IMG/VR virus record: IMGVR_UViG_3300009159_000038
Span: 62,001 to 126,000 of that record
Origin: an uncultured virus (IMG/VR IMGVR_UViG_3300009159_000038)
Taxonomy: Duplodnaviria > Heunggongvirae > Uroviricota > Caudoviricetes
Direction: 5' to 3' (one strand)
DNA: 64,000 nt
Shown: piece after piece, positions 1,321 through 63,570 of the stretch
Numbering within the stretch: position 1 is the first letter of the stretch
How the letters are laid out: the number at the start of each line of letters is the position of its first letter
The notes under the pieces: model-generated
Databases searched by the model: none
What the model saw: only the letters and a program-made list of their open reading frames with translations
Told to the model about the DNA's origin: nothing
Translations under genes and position numbers: made by a program

Positions 1321-1685
1321 TGAAAACATTCAAAGAATATCTTATTGAAAGTAATACTTTCTCTGAAGAAGAAATCAAAGCACTTAATGAAAATCTTAAG
1401 TCTGAATTAACTGAAGCTGAAGAAGCTAAAATCGATAAAGCTATCAAAGAATTTTGTAGTCAATATCTTGATAAAAACAAGAATATAAAAGAATTTAATG
1501 AAGAGCTTACAAATGAAGGTTTTCTAGGATCTATCCTAGGAGGTCTTACCGGTTTTGCTCTAGGATCTTCGATCGGTAAAATTATTGCAAATGTACTAGG
1601 TATTGAGAGAGGCGTAATTTACGATTTACTAACAAGTAGACTTGTTGGAGCTGCATTAGGTGCTGCATTAGGAAAACGTGTATGA
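1320..1685 (+). CDS. Putative internal head protein with glycine-zipper C-terminus
   Basis: Leader MKTFKEYLIE; C-terminal GFLGSILGGLTGFALG...LVGAALGAALG. Confidence 0.6.
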   Translation: MKTFKEYLIESNTFSEEEIKALNENLKSELTEAEEAKIDKAIKEFCSQYLDKNKNIKEFNEELTNEGFLGSILGGLTGFALGSSIGKIIANVLGIERGVIYDLLTSRLVGAALGAALGKRV

Positions 1686-2299
1686 TAATAGGAATTGATT
1701 TCTCAATTAACAGTACAGCCGTATCTATAAACGAAGGAGGTAACCTCACTCTATTTTCATTCGTTCCAAATTTTCAATCAGGTAAAGCCGCATTCAGAAC
1801 ACATGATGCAATACGAGAAATTGTCACGGTTGTTAGCTATAATAAAGAACCTAATACTAAAGATAGTTTAGAAGATCAAAGAATTAAGATTCGTAATGCT
1901 AACGAATTATCCGATCAAATAATATCTCACATTAGACCTTATTTAGAAGAAGCAGAATTTATCAATATAGAAGGTTTCTCATTTGGATCTAAAGGAAATT
2001 CTTTCATCGATCTAATATCATACAATACATTTTTAAAAGTAAAACTGCTACAAATTGTAGGAGAGAAGATTTGGGTTATCCCTCCAAAATCTATTAAGAA
2101 GCTATATACAGGAAATGGCAATGCTTCAAAATGTATGATGGTTAATCGTTTCATGATGGATTCTTCTCCTCTTCGAGATAAAATCACCGAACTTGAATTT
2201 ATTCAAGAAGGAGAATACGCTATCCCTAAACCGATTGACGATATTGTTGATGCCGTAGCTCTTTCTCGATTAAACCCGAGTACACAATCCATCATATAA
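1682..2299 (+). CDS. RuvC-like (RNase H fold) nuclease / Holliday junction resolvase
   Basis: IIGIDFS, INIEGFSFG and DDIVDA acidic catalytic motifs; GNGNASK motif. Confidence 0.75.
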   Translation: MIIGIDFSINSTAVSINEGGNLTLFSFVPNFQSGKAAFRTHDAIREIVTVVSYNKEPNTKDSLEDQRIKIRNANELSDQIISHIRPYLEEAEFINIEGFSFGSKGNSFIDLISYNTFLKVKLLQIVGEKIWVIPPKSIKKLYTGNGNASKCMMVNRFMMDSSPLRDKITELEFIQEGEYAIPKPIDDIVDAVALSRLNPSTQSII

Positions 2300-2320: not shown

Positions 2321-4150
2321 ATGAAAGTTAATATTATAACTAGGCTCACTCGACCTGAATACCTTAAAGAGGTTTGGAAATCTATAGAAGATTCTCGAGT
2401 AGATAACATCCAGATAAATTGGCATGTTATCATTGACATATTAGGTAATTTCTCAATATCCTCAGAACTTCTTAGGTTTATTGAGAGTAAAACTACCTCG
2501 ATCATTATGGAAAAAGGTGAACCAAACACTTTTGGATATAGCCTAATCAATAATCTAATTGATACTTTACCCGATGATGAATGGATATACATTCTTGACG
2601 ATGATAATGCAATACATCCTGAATTTTTCAAAATCGTACAAGAAAGAGTTAACCTTCCCGGAATCTGGGCATTCAATCAATTAGTCGAAGGAAAAGACTT
2701 TACGAAATTACATATCAGAGAAGCCACTCTCGATAATATGAGATGGCAAGGAGTAGATGTTGGCCAACTACTTATTCATAAAGGAACAATGAATCCACAT
2801 CGTTTTCATGCTCATTATAGTGGAGATGGATATTTCATCAATGCCATCAAGGCAGAAAAACCCGAGATATTTCATTTCATTAATGAAACCCTTACTAATT
2901 ACAATTATTTTCAGAAGAAGAAGCTCAATAGAAAACTTCCAAGAATTCTATTAATACACGATAAAGATGTTGAGTTAATATCCAACAATCCACCTTATTT
3001 TGAATGTGAAGAACTTACAGTTAAAAGAATAGAGAAATATGATGAATCGGTCGTTTCTGAATTTAATCCAGATTGTATTTTATCGATTGGCGGTGAATGG
3101 AAAGATTATCCTGAGCTAGCTAATTCATCATTTGACTTTAAACAAAGGTGGTTGCATTTCGAAGAGTACTCACCAGAAATAGGAGAAGATGCCTATCAAT
3201 GTGCAACTGCCTATATTCTAAATAGACAAACCACTCAACCGCTTTTAAGTATTATTACTCCAATATACAATACTGGAGATAAGCTAAGAAGAACTTATAA
3301 ATCAATCAAAGAACAAACTTACACGAATTGGGAATGGGTTATTGTTGACGATTCGACAGATGAATATACCTCTAATCTTGCAAAAGAAATCGAGAAAGAT
3401 GATTCGAGAGTAACTGTCTATCGAATACTTCCAATTAGTGGTGGAATTATTGGTGAAGCCAAATATCGTGCATTCATGCTTTCTCGAGGAGAAATTCTTA
3501 TGGAAATGGATCATGATGATGAGCTACATCCAGAAGCAAATGAATATATTATTAAGGCTTATAATCGATATCCAGATGCCGGTTTCTATTATTCAGATTG
3601 TATAGAGATTAACGAAAAACACGAATCTTTAACTTATGGACCTGATGGAACATGGGCTTTAGGTTATGGTAAATATTATGATTATCATCATAATGGAAGA
3701 GATTACAAATCCGTAGATCAACCTAATATTAATCCTCTTACTATTCGCCACATTGTGGCTGTTCCAAATCACTTTCGTGCTTGGCGAAGAGATGTTTATC
3801 TTTCAGTTGGATCTCATAATAGAAGATTATCCATAGCTGATGATTATGAGTTAATCGTTAGAACATTCCTACAAACTCGAATGGTTCACATTCCAAAACC
3901 TCTCTACTTCCAATATTATCATGGAGGAAATTCTCAAGATGATGGTAATGCAAGAGCCGATATTCAAAGAAGAGTAAGATCTATTTCAGTTTTCTATAAC
4001 TGGGATATCAGAAACAGATTCCGTCAATTAGGCGTAGAAGATTGGGCATTCGTTGATTCTAATTGGCCTTGGTACGAATCACCAAAATTCGGTGAGGAAG
4101 AGAAGTATGTTAATTATCTTTTAGATATTAATGAGAATGAAGGAGAATGA
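2321..4150 (+). CDS. Double-domain GT2 family glycosyltransferase
   Basis: N-domain WIYILDDDN. C-domain LSIITPIYN, WEWVIVDDS, EMDHDDEL, ADDYEL. Confidence 0.85.
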   Translation: MKVNIITRLTRPEYLKEVWKSIEDSRVDNIQINWHVIIDILGNFSISSELLRFIESKTTSIIMEKGEPNTFGYSLINNLIDTLPDDEWIYILDDDNAIHPEFFKIVQERVNLPGIWAFNQLVEGKDFTKLHIREATLDNMRWQGVDVGQLLIHKGTMNPHRFHAHYSGDGYFINAIKAEKPEIFHFINETLTNYNYFQKKKLNRKLPRILLIHDKDVELISNNPPYFECEELTVKRIEKYDESVVSEFNPDCILSIGGEWKDYPELANSSFDFKQRWLHFEEYSPEIGEDAYQCATAYILNRQTTQPLLSIITPIYNTGDKLRRTYKSIKEQTYTNWEWVIVDDSTDEYTSNLAKEIEKDDSRVTVYRILPISGGIIGEAKYRAFMLSRGEILMEMDHDDELHPEANEYIIKAYNRYPDAGFYYSDCIEINEKHESLTYGPDGTWALGYGKYYDYHHNGRDYKSVDQPNINPLTIRHIVAVPNHFRAWRRDVYLSVGSHNRRLSIADDYELIVRTFLQTRMVHIPKPLYFQYYHGGNSQDDGNARADIQRRVRSISVFYNWDIRNRFRQLGVEDWAFVDSNWPWYESPKFGEEEKYVNYLLDINENEGE

Positions 4151-51648: not shown

Positions 51649-52161
51649 ATGCTAGCATATCCTCCTAAACCTACAGCAATTCTTCCACATGAATCCAAGA
51701 TAGAGAATTACATAATTCAACCTAAATGGCGTGGATGGCGAATTGCAATACATAAAAATAAATCATGGACAAGGACTGGTAATTCAATTCCAGTCCAAAC
51801 TGATTATCCTGAAAAACCTTATGAATATCAACTAGATGGAGAAATCATTTCAACGGACAAAGAAGTAGAACATCGAGTTCGTGGTGCAATAAAAAGTGGT
51901 CGATATCAAATTCGTATATTTGACATATATCTACCAGAAAGACCTGATGCTACTATTGAGGAAAGACTTCAAGTTCTTAAATCGGATTTTGGAATTGAAG
52001 TAGAAACTCATAGTGCAAAAACCGGAAAGGATATTGAATCGCTCTTTAAGATGTTTACTGCTCGTGGAAATGAAGGTTTGGTAATGAAACTTAAGGGATC
52101 TAAATATCGAGCATCGCAAAGTGGAAATGAAATTGATAACAATTGGTCAAAAATCCGTTAA
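51649..52161 (+). CDS. Minimal ATP-dependent ligase (adenylation domain only)
   Basis: IQPKWRGWR (motif I variant), TRTG, LDGEI (III), IFDI (IIIa), EGLVMK (IV), WSKIR (V); no OB domain. Confidence 0.75.
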   Translation: MLAYPPKPTAILPHESKIENYIIQPKWRGWRIAIHKNKSWTRTGNSIPVQTDYPEKPYEYQLDGEIISTDKEVEHRVRGAIKSGRYQIRIFDIYLPERPDATIEERLQVLKSDFGIEVETHSAKTGKDIESLFKMFTARGNEGLVMKLKGSKYRASQSGNEIDNNWSKIR

Positions 52162-52280
52162 AAATCAAAGTACCGAGATATATAATTAACAAACTTTTAA
52201 AATGTTTGTATTCTGTGAAACTGGATAACTTTCCATCATATAATATAAACAAACGTTCTTTAAATTAACACAAACTTTAA

Positions 52281-52340
52281 CAAGTGGTAAGCGGTCGAGT
52301 TACTTCGTTATCAGAAAAACACTCACCCATCATTCCCTTG
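52281..52340 (+). ncRNA. Candidate Y-RNA-like small RNA 1
   Basis: CAAG-U-GG/CC-CUUG closing stem; GGU(C)GAGU/ACUCACC helix with bulged C; sits upstream of Ro60. Confidence 0.6.
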
Positions 52341-52349
52341 ATAAGATAT

Positions 52350-52523
52350 TTTGATAGTAGTTATGCGTAGAGTTACATCGTAATCCAACTTCGCAAGAAG
52401 TTATTATACAATTAATTCTATAAATGAAAACCAAAGATTGCGGTTCTTAATTGATCCACTATCACACGAATTTAAGCTTAGGCTTTTATTCAAAACCATC
52501 TCTACCCGGGATTCTCTATCAAA
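52350..52523 (+). ncRNA. Candidate Y-RNA-like small RNA 2 (paralogue of RNA 1 with a large internal insert)
   Basis: UUUGAUAG-U-AG/CU-CUAUCAAA stem; GUAGAG/CUCUAC helix; shares GAGUUAC.UCGU.AUC with RNA 1; internal AACUUC-GCAA-GAAGUU hairpin. Confidence 0.6.
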
Positions 52524-52532
52524 CATTTTTAC

Positions 52533-52564
52533 AAGGGATTTGCTTTCGAGCGAATCCCTTTTTT
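52533..52564 (+). terminator. Rho-independent terminator between the ncRNAs and Ro60
   Basis: AAGGGATTTGCT-TTCG-AGCGAATCCCTT followed by a T run. Confidence 0.88.
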
Positions 52565-52594
52565 ATTGAATTGAAATTAATATAAAATCGATAT

Positions 52595-54184
52595 ATGGCA
52601 CGTTACAATCAAAAACCGACAAATACAGTAGAAACTGTAACTAACCACCAAGGTGGAGTATCTGTAAAATTAGATCCTAAAATAGAGCTGGTAAGCATTC
52701 TAGCTAATGGATTCGATAATACCTATTACGAGAAATTGAGTGATCGAGAAATTCGATTTGCAGACTTAATTCAAGAAATCGCAAAGACCGATTTGGAATT
52801 CGTTGCAAAAGCTCTTGTATATACTCGTTCAGTAATGGGTCAACGATCAGTAACACATTTTGGATCCGTTGCTTTAGCATCCGAACTTTCAGGAAGTGAA
52901 ATCGCAAAAAGATTTTTCTCTAAACGAGATCGTAAAGAAAATCAAGGTGGTATTGTATATCGCATTGATGATATGCTCGAAATTATGGCTTGCTATCAAG
53001 CTCTTAATCCCGGTAAACCAATGCCTAACTCAATGAAAAAAGGTTTTCGAGATACTCTTGAATCATCCGATGCTTATGAGCTAGCTAAATATCAAGGTAA
53101 AGGAAGAACGGTTTCATTGGTTGACTTAATAAACCTAGTTCATCCAAAACCGAATATCAAAATGCAACCCATCTTTAAATCATTGATGGAAGGAACTCTT
53201 AAACAATTCAATACCGTTGAAGATAAGAATACCTCATCTGGTCAAGAAGTTGCAAAGAAAGTGAAAGAAGGAACCATCACTAAAGATGAAGCGGTGATCG
53301 AGCTAAAGGTTGCAAAGGAATCGAATTATCGTGAGCTAATCACAACGAAGAAAATTGGTTATCTTGCTCTTTTAAGAAATGTTCGCAATATTCTCTCGAA
53401 TTCAACCGAAGCAGATTTAATCGATTCAGTTTGTGAAATGTTAACTAACAAAGGTGCAATTCACAAATCTCTAGTATTTCCATATCAAATCGATTTAGCA
53501 ATGGAAATGATTATGGAAACCGGATCTTCTACTAGTCGCAATCGAGTTATTAAAGCTCTTAATGATGCATATGAGCTATCAATTCCTAATATGGCTGAAT
53601 TGGGAATGAGTGGTAGAACTGCAGTTGTACTTGATACATCTGGTTCTATGAATTCTCAAATTCGTTTAGCAAATAAAGCACACGGTTCTCAATCAGCACT
53701 TGATAAAGGCGGTTTAATCGCTGCAACTTTTGCTAAAGGTTTAAATGCCGATGTTTATGAATTCTCTAATACTTGTAAACGAGTAAATGTGAATCCATTA
53801 GATACCTCCAATACCATCAAAGAAAAGATTATTCGTCAAGGATCTCATGGTGGAACTGAATTTAATTCAATCTTCTCAACCCTAGAAAAAAATGGTGCAT
53901 ATGATCGAGTATTCATTATTTCCGATATGCAAGGAAGAGATGATATTATTAATGGTAATCAATGGTCATCCAAAGGAAAAAGTACATACTCAAATTACAT
54001 ATCTAAATTTGGTTCACCACATGTTTATACAATTGATCTTTGTAGTTATGGAACTACCATGTTCAAACCAAATAACAAAGTTTATCAGCTATTTGGATAT
54101 TCATCAGAAATGTATGAGTTAGCTAAACGAATGGAAATTGATCCTAAAGCTCTTATCAAAGCGATTGAAGCTATTGTAATCTAA
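52595..54184 (+). CDS. Ro60/Rsr-like TROVE-domain RNA-binding protein with C-terminal vWA domain
   Basis: TNHQGG, YYE, FVAKA.VY.R..MG.RS, R.DD..E, YELAKY...VSL.DL.NL.HPKP, YLALLRN.RN, FPYQ; vWA DTSGSM, GGT, ISDMQ. Confidence 0.9.
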   Translation: MARYNQKPTNTVETVTNHQGGVSVKLDPKIELVSILANGFDNTYYEKLSDREIRFADLIQEIAKTDLEFVAKALVYTRSVMGQRSVTHFGSVALASELSGSEIAKRFFSKRDRKENQGGIVYRIDDMLEIMACYQALNPGKPMPNSMKKGFRDTLESSDAYELAKYQGKGRTVSLVDLINLVHPKPNIKMQPIFKSLMEGTLKQFNTVEDKNTSSGQEVAKKVKEGTITKDEAVIELKVAKESNYRELITTKKIGYLALLRNVRNILSNSTEADLIDSVCEMLTNKGAIHKSLVFPYQIDLAMEMIMETGSSTSRNRVIKALNDAYELSIPNMAELGMSGRTAVVLDTSGSMNSQIRLANKAHGSQSALDKGGLIAATFAKGLNADVYEFSNTCKRVNVNPLDTSNTIKEKIIRQGSHGGTEFNSIFSTLEKNGAYDRVFIISDMQGRDDIINGNQWSSKGKSTYSNYISKFGSPHVYTIDLCSYGTTMFKPNNKVYQLFGYSSEMYELAKRMEIDPKALIKAIEAIVI

Positions 54185-54232: not shown

Positions 54233-54244
54233 AATTTGTACTCC

Positions 54245-54676
54245 ATGAAAAAAGAAATATACATACAAAATCGCAAAGCAAAATTTGATTATCATTTTAT
54301 AGAACAATATGAAGCCGGTATTGTATTATTTGGTACCGAAGTAAAGAGTATCAAAGCGGCTAAAGTGTCTTTAGTAGATTCATATTGTTTCTTTGATAAA
54401 GGTGAGTTATTTGTCAAATCAATGAATATAACTCCGGTTGACAAATCTTTCGTTCATGAACCAATGAGAATACGAAAACTTCTTCTACACAAAAAGGAAC
54501 TTCGTAAATTAGAAAAGGGACTTAATGATGGAATTACTATTATAGTAACTGCACTCAAATCCGTGAATGGAAAAATCAAATGTGGTATTGCATTAGCCAA
54601 AGGTAAGAAAGAATACGACAAACGAGAAACTATTAAGCAGAGAGAATCTGATCGATATGTTCGAGAAGAATGTTAA
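54245..54676 (+). CDS. smpB: SsrA(tmRNA)-binding protein SmpB
   Basis: NRKA.FDY...YEAGIVL.GTEVKSI, HEP.R.RKLLLHKKE, LAKGKK.YDKRE.IK.RE. Confidence 0.96.
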   Translation: MKKEIYIQNRKAKFDYHFIEQYEAGIVLFGTEVKSIKAAKVSLVDSYCFFDKGELFVKSMNITPVDKSFVHEPMRIRKLLLHKKELRKLEKGLNDGITIIVTALKSVNGKIKCGIALAKGKKEYDKRETIKQRESDRYVREEC

Positions 54677-55098: not shown

Positions 55099-55833
55099 AT
55101 GCCAAAATTATTTAAAGTAGGAGGTTGTGTAAGAGATTCCTTTCTAGGAATTGATTCAAAAGATATCGACTTTACATTTGTTCTCGATAACCTTGAACAA
55201 ACCGTCGAACATGGTTTTGCCGATATGGCAAAATGGATGAAAGATAAAGGATTTGTAATATTTCTATCAACTCCAGAAATGTTTACTATTCGAGCTAAAT
55301 TTCCGAAAGGAGATACAAACGAAGGTTTAGTCGCTGACTTCGTAATGGCTAGAAAAGAAATTGGTTATGTTGAAGGAACTAGACGTCCAATACTTGCATT
55401 AGGTACTTTGGAGGATGATCTTTTACGAAGAGATTTTACTCTTAATGCAATGGCTGTTGCAGAAGACGGAACGCTAATCGATCTATTCAACGGTAAAGAA
55501 GATCTTGAAAATGGTTTACTTAGAACTCCTCTTCCGGCTTCACAAACGATGATGGATGATCCATTAAGGTTCCTAAGAGCTTTAAGATTTTCCATCACTA
55601 AAGATTTTCAAATACATCCTTCTATATTTGTTGCTATGATGCAACCGGATATATTAGAAAAACTTAAACATGTAGTTTCTGCTGAAAGAATAAGAGATGA
55701 AGTTTACAAAATGATGAAAGCCGATACCATAAAAACTCTCGAGCTATTTGCAGTTGTAGAAGCCACTATACCTGGATTTATTGAATTAGTATTTAGTCGA
55801 GGTCTATGGTTAAAACCAACATTCGAATTATAA
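55099..55833 (+). CDS. Class II tRNA nucleotidyltransferase (CCA-adding / poly(A) polymerase family)
   Basis: VGGCVRD..LG...KDIDF, R.E..Y..G.R.P, DL.RRDFT.NAMA, DDPLR.LRA.RF, SAERI..E..K. Confidence 0.9.
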   Translation: MPKLFKVGGCVRDSFLGIDSKDIDFTFVLDNLEQTVEHGFADMAKWMKDKGFVIFLSTPEMFTIRAKFPKGDTNEGLVADFVMARKEIGYVEGTRRPILALGTLEDDLLRRDFTLNAMAVAEDGTLIDLFNGKEDLENGLLRTPLPASQTMMDDPLRFLRALRFSITKDFQIHPSIFVAMMQPDILEKLKHVVSAERIRDEVYKMMKADTIKTLELFAVVEATIPGFIELVFSRGLWLKPTFEL

Positions 55834-61740: not shown

Positions 61741-63570
61741 ATGAGATTTGTACTTGATATATCTGCAAACAATAACACTTACAAGGCTAATGATTCTTTG
61801 GTTGTTAAATTTTCAGATTCTTTTAAATTAATTGGATCTATACAATCAATTAACTTTGATTTTGCTCCACTAGATACTGCATCAAATGGACACGATATTT
61901 CTATTCGTTGGTCGTATGACGGTATGGTATGGTCAGCATGGGAAGATTGGATAATCAAAACAGCAGCTGTTGCAAATCAACAAGATCTAATTAGTAAAAT
62001 TATCACCAATCACGATTCATTCTTTTTAGAATTTCGTTTAGTTAGATATGGTACAGATGTAGGAACTAGAACTCTTACATTAGCGGCAATGGAATTCGAG
62101 AGCAAATCTGCTCCTGAACAAATGGTTGAATCGCCATTTGGAAATACATCATGTTATGCACAATGTTCTCCATCACAAAACTTCTATACCGGAGTAAGAA
62201 TTGATTGTGATCCAAGACTTCTATTTCAACCTTACAATTTAATGAATCCGGCAATAAACTTCTATCGAGAAGCTTCGAATGCCGTATCTGAAATGTTTGG
62301 TCATTGTGTTCGTTATTTCAAAACTCAAGCAGATGTTGCTTCAGCTGATGCGGTACTTAAAGAATATTCATTATTCAATGTGACTGATGTTAAAGACATC
62401 AAAATCATGGTTCCGGATAATACATTCCCAGATAATGCTATTGCATTCTTTCCTTATGATATGGATTTTGGAGAAGGTCTAGAGATACACATAGTAAGAG
62501 ATCATTTCGAAAGAGCATTCGGTGTAGATGATTTACCTGAACAAAAAGATTATTTATACTTTCCTCTCATAGATCGTATGTTCGAAGTTCATTCAGCATA
62601 TCTTTATAGAGATTTTATGATGTCTCAAGTTTATTACAAAGTGATGCTATACAAATGGCAAGATAAGCTAAATGTAATGAGAGATATCAAAGAAATCAAT
62701 GATTATGTAGATAATTTAACTGAGAATTTTGATGAAGTTCTACAACCAGAGGTGGATAAAGAATTTTTACAAATAACGAAACCAGATCAATATGTAACTT
62801 CATCCATGAATAATATCGGTGGATATGATAATGTTAGATCTCTTATTAATACAGATATTCAAATAAAGACTTATGATCTAAACAATTACTTTACAATAGT
62901 AGGTAAGTATTTTTACGAATTGAATACCGGAATAAAACAAAATGATTTAGCGGTGAAATATAAATTGTTAGTAAATAGATCACAAAGTGAACATACTGCA
63001 TTTTCTGCATGGTTCAAACCTTTAAAGTCTAATTGGACAACGCAAACAAATACATACGATACAATAATCAATGGATATAATACTGCAGAATCCAAAGGTT
63101 ATCGAATCAATCTTCTTTATAGTAATGTAAATAATACAGTTGTTACTAGTGGAATAGAAGTTAAAATAAATGGACAAACTTTACAATTCAATCAAGATTT
63201 TCCTCAATTAAATAGAGACGAATGGTATGCAATCGTATTTAATCAGCTAAACGATTTTTCACAGGCATCAATTCATATTTGGAAAATGAAATGGACAGGG
63301 GCACCAAACACACAAAAGACAACCGATCTTCAATTAGTATACACTCAAAACGTTTCAATTATTGCAGAAGAAGTCAAACCAACTGCAACTAATTTTACTT
63401 TAGTCGGTGGAACTTTAGGAATAACAAATGTAAGAATTTGGAAAGAATCTATTGAAGAAGAAAAACAACCATTGGTTCTTAATCAATATGTAGTAAGAGA
63501 TTCTCATTTATCTTTAGCTACAGACAATGCTATACCACCTTTACGATTAGTTAAAGAATATGTTAGATAA
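61741..63570 (+). CDS. Neck protein (gp14-like domain) with N-terminal extension and C-terminal LamG-like domain
   Basis: MFGH.V.Y...D.VL.E...F...LP...D.LYFPL..RMFEV; C-terminal FSAWFKP...WY.IV...VRIW. Confidence 0.6.
   Translation: MRFVLDISANNNTYKANDSLVVKFSDSFKLIGSIQSINFDFAPLDTASNGHDISIRWSYDGMVWSAWEDWIIKTAAVANQQDLISKIITNHDSFFLEFRLVRYGTDVGTRTLTLAAMEFESKSAPEQMVESPFGNTSCYAQCSPSQNFYTGVRIDCDPRLLFQPYNLMNPAINFYREASNAVSEMFGHCVRYFKTQADVASADAVLKEYSLFNVTDVKDIKIMVPDNTFPDNAIAFFPYDMDFGEGLEIHIVRDHFERAFGVDDLPEQKDYLYFPLIDRMFEVHSAYLYRDFMMSQVYYKVMLYKWQDKLNVMRDIKEINDYVDNLTENFDEVLQPEVDKEFLQITKPDQYVTSSMNNIGGYDNVRSLINTDIQIKTYDLNNYFTIVGKYFYELNTGIKQNDLAVKYKLLVNRSQSEHTAFSAWFKPLKSNWTTQTNTYDTIINGYNTAESKGYRINLLYSNVNNTVVTSGIEVKINGQTLQFNQDFPQLNRDEWYAIVFNQLNDFSQASIHIWKMKWTGAPNTQKTTDLQLVYTQNVSIIAEEVKPTATNFTLVGGTLGITNVRIWKESIEEEKQPLVLNQYVVRDSHLSLATDNAIPPLRLVKEYVR

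Follow-up and report, generated by a model that had tools for sequence, protein, structure and literature searches.

The locus analysed here lies in a 64,000-nucleotide (nt) stretch of DNA from an uncultured lake virus of the class Caudoviricetes (IMG/VR record IMGVR_UViG_3300009159_000038, positions 62,001 to 126,000), referred to below as the window. It comprises a gene for a Ro60-like protein with TROVE and vWA domains and, directly upstream, two stem-loops, designated RNA1 and RNA2, which we regard as probable Y-RNA-like partners of that protein (Table 1). Particles composed of Ro60 and Y RNA have been described in animals, in bacteria and in a small number of phages.

The TROVE gene and the two stem-loops

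The window is AT-rich phage DNA (approximately 33% G+C), and a Pfam search identified among its products a clamp loader, a ligase-like protein, a 5'-3' exonuclease, SmpB and a CCA/poly(A)-type nucleotidyltransferase. The gap that precedes the TROVE gene (52162-52594, about 430 nt) contains no credible open reading frame (ORF), the longest one encoding 44 amino acids (aa). The closest solved relative of the TROVE protein is Ro60 (phiRo60) of Thermus phage phiLo (PDB 9KOP/9L5Y, E 1.3e-20, residues 13-515), with whose D-x-S-x-S motif its own is aligned, and Xenopus Ro60 (PDB 1YVP) was matched at E 4e-4. As an AlphaFold2 model built with 5 sequences was too poor for a fold search (predicted local distance difference test score 58.5, predicted template-modelling score 0.39), the fold assignment rests on these PDB sequence matches.

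A sequence-only reading of the window had described two related stem-loops before the TROVE gene, with paired ends and a U bulged at the same place. The sequence is as described, and a covariance model (see below) finds both. Their common basal stem starts with a closing helix (helix 1); the bulged U follows, then two R-G:C-Y pairs, and beyond an internal loop come a further helix (helix 2) and the sequence UAC(U/A)UCG. The stem differences between RNA1 and RNA2 are compensatory, as claimed (GG:CC versus AG:CU), and the extra insert of RNA2 proved to be 113 nt long, with three hairpins, one of them closed by the GCAA loop, and with neither a T-arm nor a D-arm motif. The 3' end of RNA2 is separated from the TROVE start by 72 nt, on the same strand. 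RNA1 is conserved in the close relatives L017 and L003 (L numbers denote fetched loci), to which RNA2 shows a mean identity of 94%, the differences being confined to its insert; relatives with 98% and 91% TROVE identity keep both RNAs.

Table 1. Features of the TROVE locus and of related loci. Window positions are given unless a locus number precedes them; R1 is the covariance model described in the text.
Feature	Position	Strand	Remarks
Conserved upstream box ACGTTCTTTAAA	52253..52264	+	Candidate promoter or processing signal; GTTC[AT]T at 52255-52260
RNA1	52279..52343 (core 52281-52340)	+	Short Y-like hairpin without tRNA-like module; R1 64.8 bits
RNA1 helix 1	C52281-G52284 with C52337-G52340	+	Bulged U52285
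RNA1 pairs after bulge	G52286-G52287 with C52335-C52336	+	
RNA1 helix 2	52293-52300 with 52321-52327	+	GGU(C)GAGU with ACUC-ACC; UACUUCG at 52301-52307
RNA2	52350..52523	+	Same basal stem plus insert; R1 22 bits, filters off
RNA2 helix 1	52350-52357 with 52516-52523	+	(UUU)GAUAG with CUAUC(AAA); bulged U52358
RNA2 pairs after bulge	52359-60 with 52514-15	+	AG with CU
RNA2 helix 2	52367-72 with 52500-05	+	GUAGAG with CUCUAC; UACAUCG at 52374-80
RNA2 insert	52386-52498	+	
Intrinsic terminator	52533..52567 (stem 52533-52560)	+	12-pair stem, then T-run; just before TROVE
Ro60-like TROVE + vWA gene	52595..54184	+	529 aa; Pfam TROVE E 2.4e-13
Inverted repeat ACAAAC-N9-GTTTGT	52186-52212		After ligase-like gene
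SmpB gene	54236-54676		Pfam E 3e-47
CCA/poly(A)-type nucleotidyltransferase gene	55099-55833		
Transfer-messenger RNA (L056)	C1:20731-21169	-	Same phage record, outside the window; Rfam 85.6 bits
tRNA-enclosing elements	L012:2139-2261; L013:1638-1766, 2218-2351; L014:2894-3025; L022:2674-2803, 2991-3114; L025:1377-1507, 1612-1746		Relatives
Long elements just downstream of TROVE	L013:5102-5172; L015:5110-5207; L016:1486-1558		Same 5'/3' ends
tRNA-like sequence directly upstream of TROVE	L005:2755-2968		Interrupted by ~130 extra bases
Family matches directly upstream of TROVE	L179:2997-3415; L302:1890-2327		Phage csAssE-Sib (OR575929.1); crAss-like cr111_1 (MT774387.1)
Weak matches in crAss001	L301:4352-4522		MH675552.1; 19.6 and 17.1 bits

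A family of stem-loops in TROVE loci

The seed of the covariance model R1 consisted of ten short forms, RNA1 among them and RNA2 not; the model replaced a crude own-versus-other helix-matching script, which picked wrong 3' partners in long regions. Run with filters off on both strands of the whole 64-kb window, R1 returned just two matches at E<=0.1, namely RNA1 (E 4e-13) and RNA2 (E 0.009 over the window, 5.7e-4 over 4 kb), the latter being missed with default filters. The model was then applied to 39 loci which homology to TROVE alone (46-100% aa identity) had brought up in viral contigs and metagenomes, some of them derived from closely related phages, in which TROVE was the sole gene in common. 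All 74 matches at E<=1 were located on the TROVE strand. At E<=0.01, 55 copies, one to six per locus, were found in 27 of the 32 loci having at least 300 nt of upstream DNA, every copy being upstream of TROVE and on the same strand. No match at E<=1 was obtained in Vibrio phage pv27, which also has TROVE.

Elements with the same 5' and 3' ends also occur after the TROVE gene, i.e. an extra long one in L013, L015 and L016, and elements of about 200 nt in L006, L007, L014 and L016. To these downstream elements R1 gave weak (E 0.02-0.6), truncated matches.

Covariation in homologous loci, named beforehand as a test of the Y RNA proposal, was found. In the model-fitted alignment of the 55 sequences, which is biased towards structure, 89.9% of cells were paired, against 63.3 +/- 1.1% after shuffling (none of 500 shuffles reached the observed value) and 43-53% when the partners were slid by 1-3 columns. 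Double changes were present in 15 of the 16 pairs, and pair 8:254, just after the bulge, was AU in 30 and GC in 25 sequences and unpaired in none. On a plain MAFFT alignment of the short forms RNAalifold recovered helix 1 only, with 5/8 compensatory pairs; helix 2 fell into three registers, therefore the structure was supplied by hand and the sequences were realigned with Infernal.

The unpaired positions vary even less. The bulged U is invariant in 54/55 sequences, the 5' internal loop has U in 53/55 and A in 54/55, the bases after helix 2 are (counts of 55) U55 A53 C55 N U53 C55 G52, and UU before the 3' CY is kept in 54-55 of 55; RNA1 holds every invariant unpaired position of the family. 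Near-invariant unpaired bases of this sort are the pattern to be expected of a protein contact surface. The bulged C that the sequence-only reading had pointed out in RNA1 (GGUCGAG) is present there and in the copies of RNA1 in its closest relatives, but it is found neither in RNA2 nor in those relatives at 61-66% TROVE identity that were read, so the feature of the family is the bulged U and not the C.

It is hardly credible that the similarity is due to chance or to a non-functional repeat in AT-rich intergenic DNA. Such an origin would fit the unexceptional folding energy of RNA1, but it is contradicted by the R1 matches, by the covariation and by conservation down to 46% TROVE identity. 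The folding energy of RNA2 is stronger (z -3.89; 0/200 shuffles reach it).

The linkage was also approached from the opposite side, by scanning viral contigs with the RNA motif alone. This gave at least 120 matches, of which 80 were fetched and 74 were non-duplicate. TROVE was situated within 5 kb in 28 of the 80 loci, on the same strand in 28/28 and downstream of the motif in 24/28. As many of the pattern matches must be chance, R1 was run on the 74 non-duplicate loci, and TROVE was found within 5 kb in 20 of the 34 R1-positive versus 2 of the 40 R1-negative ones (odds ratio 27, p 3e-7). Fourteen R1-positive loci had no TROVE within that distance. Two of these are on contigs already known to contain TROVE, two have it 12-20 kb away, three belong to whole records, 11-67% complete, without TROVE, and the remaining seven are short contigs, which were not searched. 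With an odds ratio of 27, yet 14/34 R1-positive loci without a nearby TROVE gene, the linkage of the RNAs to TROVE is strong without being obligatory. When the motif pattern was applied to bacterial and archaeal genomes, it gave at least 121 matches; 80 were fetched, almost all of them chance, and R1 matched in three of these loci (two contigs). One of the two contigs, from a Flavobacterium-labelled metagenome-assembled genome, has TROVE directly downstream.

Known Y RNAs and tRNA-bearing relatives

The Rfam models, including Y_RNA, YrlA and tRNA, whose use the sequence-only reading had proposed, gave nothing in the window at gathering scores and, when the gap was scanned permissively (E<=10), no Y_RNA, YrlA or tRNA match, a result that fits a non-canonical family. 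The two RNAs do not reach the YrlA gathering cut-off of 69 bits. On reading, neither contains a GTTC[AG]A T-arm motif or a tRNA-like T/D-arm domain, and of the YrlA motif GNCGAA(N0-1)G they share only the CG core, as the window has CUUCGUUAUC and CAUCGUAAUC. Relatives with T-arm and D-arm inserts do score on YrlA (RF02553), at 39, 36 and 31 bits, below the cut-off. In one of them, L005, the CGAA motif with which the YrlA model begins is matched in the Rfam alignment by the family's UUCGAAAUC, and the long forms of the family show the YrlA order V-T-AS-D, i.e. a permuted tRNA-like module. Given the missing Rfam match in the window and the scores of 31-39 bits in relatives, the family, as judged by sequence, is a divergent YrlA/YrlB-like branch. 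The suggestion of a family apart from canonical YrlA was thus right as regards the window RNAs, which Rfam does not recognize, and wrong as regards independence from YrlA.

The published systems offer close parallels. Chen et al. 2014 (PMC4201824) report YrlA next to Ro60 in 254 bacteria and in 22 phages, the phages named in the supplement including Bacillus phage G and CcrColossus. They give the YrlA motif as GNCGAA(N)G and describe for each species a further Y RNA of the hairpin type; Deinococcus Y RNAs are stated to require Ro60 for stable accumulation. The phiLo study (PMC12135203) describes two Yrl RNAs upstream of phiRo60, with binding demonstrated by gel shift. A Y RNA acting as a tether for PNPase is reported for Deinococcus, Salmonella and phage phiLo (PMC4201824, PMC12135203). 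The occurrence of phage Ro60 with Y-like RNAs is already in print. What is new here is a signature that Rfam misses, its spread among phages, the lack of a tRNA mimic in both window copies and the modular cargo of relatives.

Like YrlA and YrlB of Salmonella and Mycobacterium smegmatis, the RNAs of this family are located beside Ro60 on the same strand, often at least two per locus, have pairing 5' and 3' ends and carry a conserved CG-containing motif near the 5' side; as with YrlB/Yrn2, a simple hairpin lacking any tRNA module is among the RNA types. The permuted T/AS/D module of YrlA is borne on the same stem in relatives only. Unlike YrlA, the window RNAs have no such module and no Rfam match, their motif is UAC(U/A)UCG, unpaired in the covariation model, instead of GNCGAA(N)G, and the basal stem is extended, with an invariant bulged U and UU, these parts being outside the Rfam model in the one relative examined. 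RNA1 fits the description of YrlB/Yrn2, a class without a sequence model, but its loop is A-rich, in contrast to the published small pyrimidine-rich loops. Similarly to Yrl1 and Yrl2 of phiLo, two Y-like RNAs with a stem-bulge-stem and a CG(AA) motif are situated upstream of a phage Ro60; the Ro60 proteins, however, are about 25% identical, and RNA binding, shown for phiLo, is a prediction for the window protein. With metazoan Y RNAs (RF00019) and Deinococcus Yrn1/Yrn2 the family shares an end-paired bulged stem as the presumed Ro60 site and a variable apical module, but there is no RF00019 match at E<=10 and the conserved bulge is U, not the C of GGUCCGA. A possible resemblance of the family motif to a human Y RNA stem was tested through Rfam, which gave no match. 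The Y RNA class features present in RNA1 and RNA2 are the same-strand TROVE neighbour and the end-paired, conserved, bulged stem. The comparisons support RNAs that would be Y-RNA-like in their working, yet fall outside YrlA.

Relatives at 61-66% TROVE identity have tRNA arrays before TROVE, with same-ended elements among and after the tRNAs. Among the 54 family matches outside the window, eight enclose a complete tRNA of standard topology according to ARAGORN (Gln four times, Ser, Gly, Cys and Asn), and the T-arm motif GTTC[AG]A is present in these and in another 16 without a tRNA call. The acceptor stems of the enclosed tRNAs are A/U-rich where the sequence was read. These observations could mean that the elements work without phage Ro60, as scaffolds, processing handles or tRNA/mimic decoys in small-RNA arrays served by host factors, the linkage to TROVE being frequent but incidental; the 14 R1-positive loci with no TROVE in 5 kb, including the three whole records with none, would agree with that. 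We nevertheless consider this unlikely. ARAGORN found zero tRNA in the window and in the whole 133,957-nt record, yet two copies of the element directly precede TROVE; the strand is the same in 28/28 and TROVE is downstream in 24/28 motif-first loci, with an odds ratio of 27; and the three records lacking TROVE are only 11-67% complete.

Human-gut phages also carry the family. In csAssE-Sib, whose TROVE gene is annotated as 'Ro sixty-related protein', and in the crAss-like cr111_1, classified in Crassvirales, family matches are directly upstream of TROVE, and the annotated tRNA-Tyr, tRNA-Lys and tRNA-Gln of this pair sit inside such matches; the tRNA-Tyr has G, not U, at position 33. The cultured crAss-like Bacteroides phage crAss001 has two weak matches in an unannotated gap of about 900 nt after its TROVE gene gp96 and could serve as an experimental system. 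In L005 the tRNA-like sequence before TROVE, with matching acceptor ends and a T-arm, is not called by ARAGORN; an intron or a giant variable arm may account for it, or it may be one more mimic.

A tentative suggestion, which we hold to be possible rather than probable, is that the window RNAs are cargo-less and odd-cargo members of a family with one universal Ro60 handle and interchangeable cargo, which would be absent in some members and in others a tRNA mimic in circular permutation or an entire tRNA of standard topology. Provided that phage Ro60 binds such handles, its part during infection would be to act on tRNAs or tRNA decoys, to mature or protect them or to deliver them, which might counter host tRNA-targeting defences, a role not described for Ro60 ribonucleoproteins. 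A literature search, the coverage of which did not extend to subscription journals, returned nothing on Ro60 or Y RNA of crAss phages or on tRNAs embedded in Y RNAs.

Transcription and proposed function

The terminator predicted between RNA2 and TROVE was confirmed, and 24/27 loci have a similar one after their last family element, ahead of TROVE. The sigma-70 promoters proposed upstream of RNA1 did not hold up, as such matches (52158-52186 and 52215-52244) occur at chance level, with 9 found versus 10.5 +/- 3.1 expected. A different candidate signal, the box GTTC[AT]T, is conserved instead, 15-24 nt upstream of 12/52 family elements compared with 2.7% of 45-nt background windows (88/3202). 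It also stands upstream of 7/8 tRNA-enclosing elements, which are the first in a run of elements where read.

Lake metatranscriptome contigs from four studies cover the region (X1 52272-52564, X2 52265-52537, X5 52275-52732 and X6 52144-52512); uncovered stretches and differences in contig depth were not counted as evidence. As neither transcript ends nor strand nor level can be read from contigs, and as DNA may be carried along in RNA libraries, we take this coverage as a weak hint of expression. X6 represents a variant strain, in which the changes shown fall in loops, insert and flanks and none in the basal-stem cores, 34 further differences being outside those shown. It stops at 52512, about 10 nt before the predicted 3' end of RNA2, and continues with 17 loose letters, which we take to be Illumina adapter sequence; if so, many X6 fragments would end at 52512.

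Contig X5, running from 52275 into TROVE, agrees with another explanation, namely that the stem-loops are not separate RNAs but act in cis as the leader of the TROVE mRNA, for example in attenuation or autoregulation. The elements occupy the gap that leads up to TROVE, and a terminator separates them from the gene, which would also suit a leader. This explanation is very unlikely, however, considering that in relatives the distance to TROVE can reach 1.6 kb, with intervening ORFs or tRNAs, and is 12-20 kb in some cases, that the elements form arrays of up to six, and that a few are downstream of TROVE.

We favour, with a probability of roughly 0.8, the interpretation that RNA1 and RNA2 are non-coding and serve the Ro60 encoded by the same phage as two Y-RNA-like partners; the protein would grip them by the conserved basal stem, and their variable tops would gate Ro60 or hold a partner on a tether. 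The proposal that phage Ro60 is served by two Y-RNA-like molecules, one short and one long, is supported on comparative evidence, i.e. the linkage, the covariation, the YrlA homology of relatives and the phiLo precedent. The two RNAs would be transcribed as one small unit, starting shortly downstream of the conserved box and ending at the terminator, and would then probably be cut into RNAs of about 60 and about 170 nt. Helices 1 and 2 would belong to the Ro60 handle, together with the bulged U, the two R-G:C-Y pairs, the internal loop, whose U, A and UU are invariant, and UAC(U/A)UCG, which is left unpaired. The tops, variable in kind (an A-rich loop in RNA1, an insert with three hairpins in RNA2), might gate the Ro60 cavity or tether factors such as host PNPase, the latter by analogy with Deinococcus, Salmonella and phiLo. 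Binding to the TROVE protein, processing and a tethered partner are what we infer from these comparisons.

Several observations weigh against this interpretation. RNA1 folds weakly (z -1.58; 15/200 shuffles fold as well), and RNA2 constrained to the family stem (-34.1 kcal/mol) is 3.6 kcal/mol above its minimum free energy structure (-37.7). R1 has no match at E<=0.01 in five of the 32 TROVE loci (L020, L028, L034, L041 and L051), nor in the gap upstream of phiRo60, where the Yrl RNAs of phiLo were validated. The permissive Rfam scan was empty, the YrlA motif is reduced to its CG core, the alignment favours structure, the metatranscriptome contigs have the shortcomings named above, and the R1-positive loci and records without TROVE belong here too.

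The signature marks dozens more phage Y-like RNAs in the sampled viral contigs, from lake phages to human-gut crAss-like phages, and the presumed Ro60 handle is shown to be a portable module, with the bulged U, UACUUCG and the 3' UU as mutational targets. Current annotation pipelines leave such RNAs unmarked or call their inserts ordinary tRNAs.

A blastn search of the locus against GenBank phages gave zero matches. The inverted repeat after the ligase-like gene is kept in L003 and may be a terminator or an operator. The genes for SmpB and the nucleotidyltransferase are located just 3' of TROVE; SmpB is beside TROVE only in relatives at least 90% identical, and the nucleotidyltransferase is present also in L013. 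Elsewhere in the phage record, Rfam detects a transfer-messenger RNA that ARAGORN missed.

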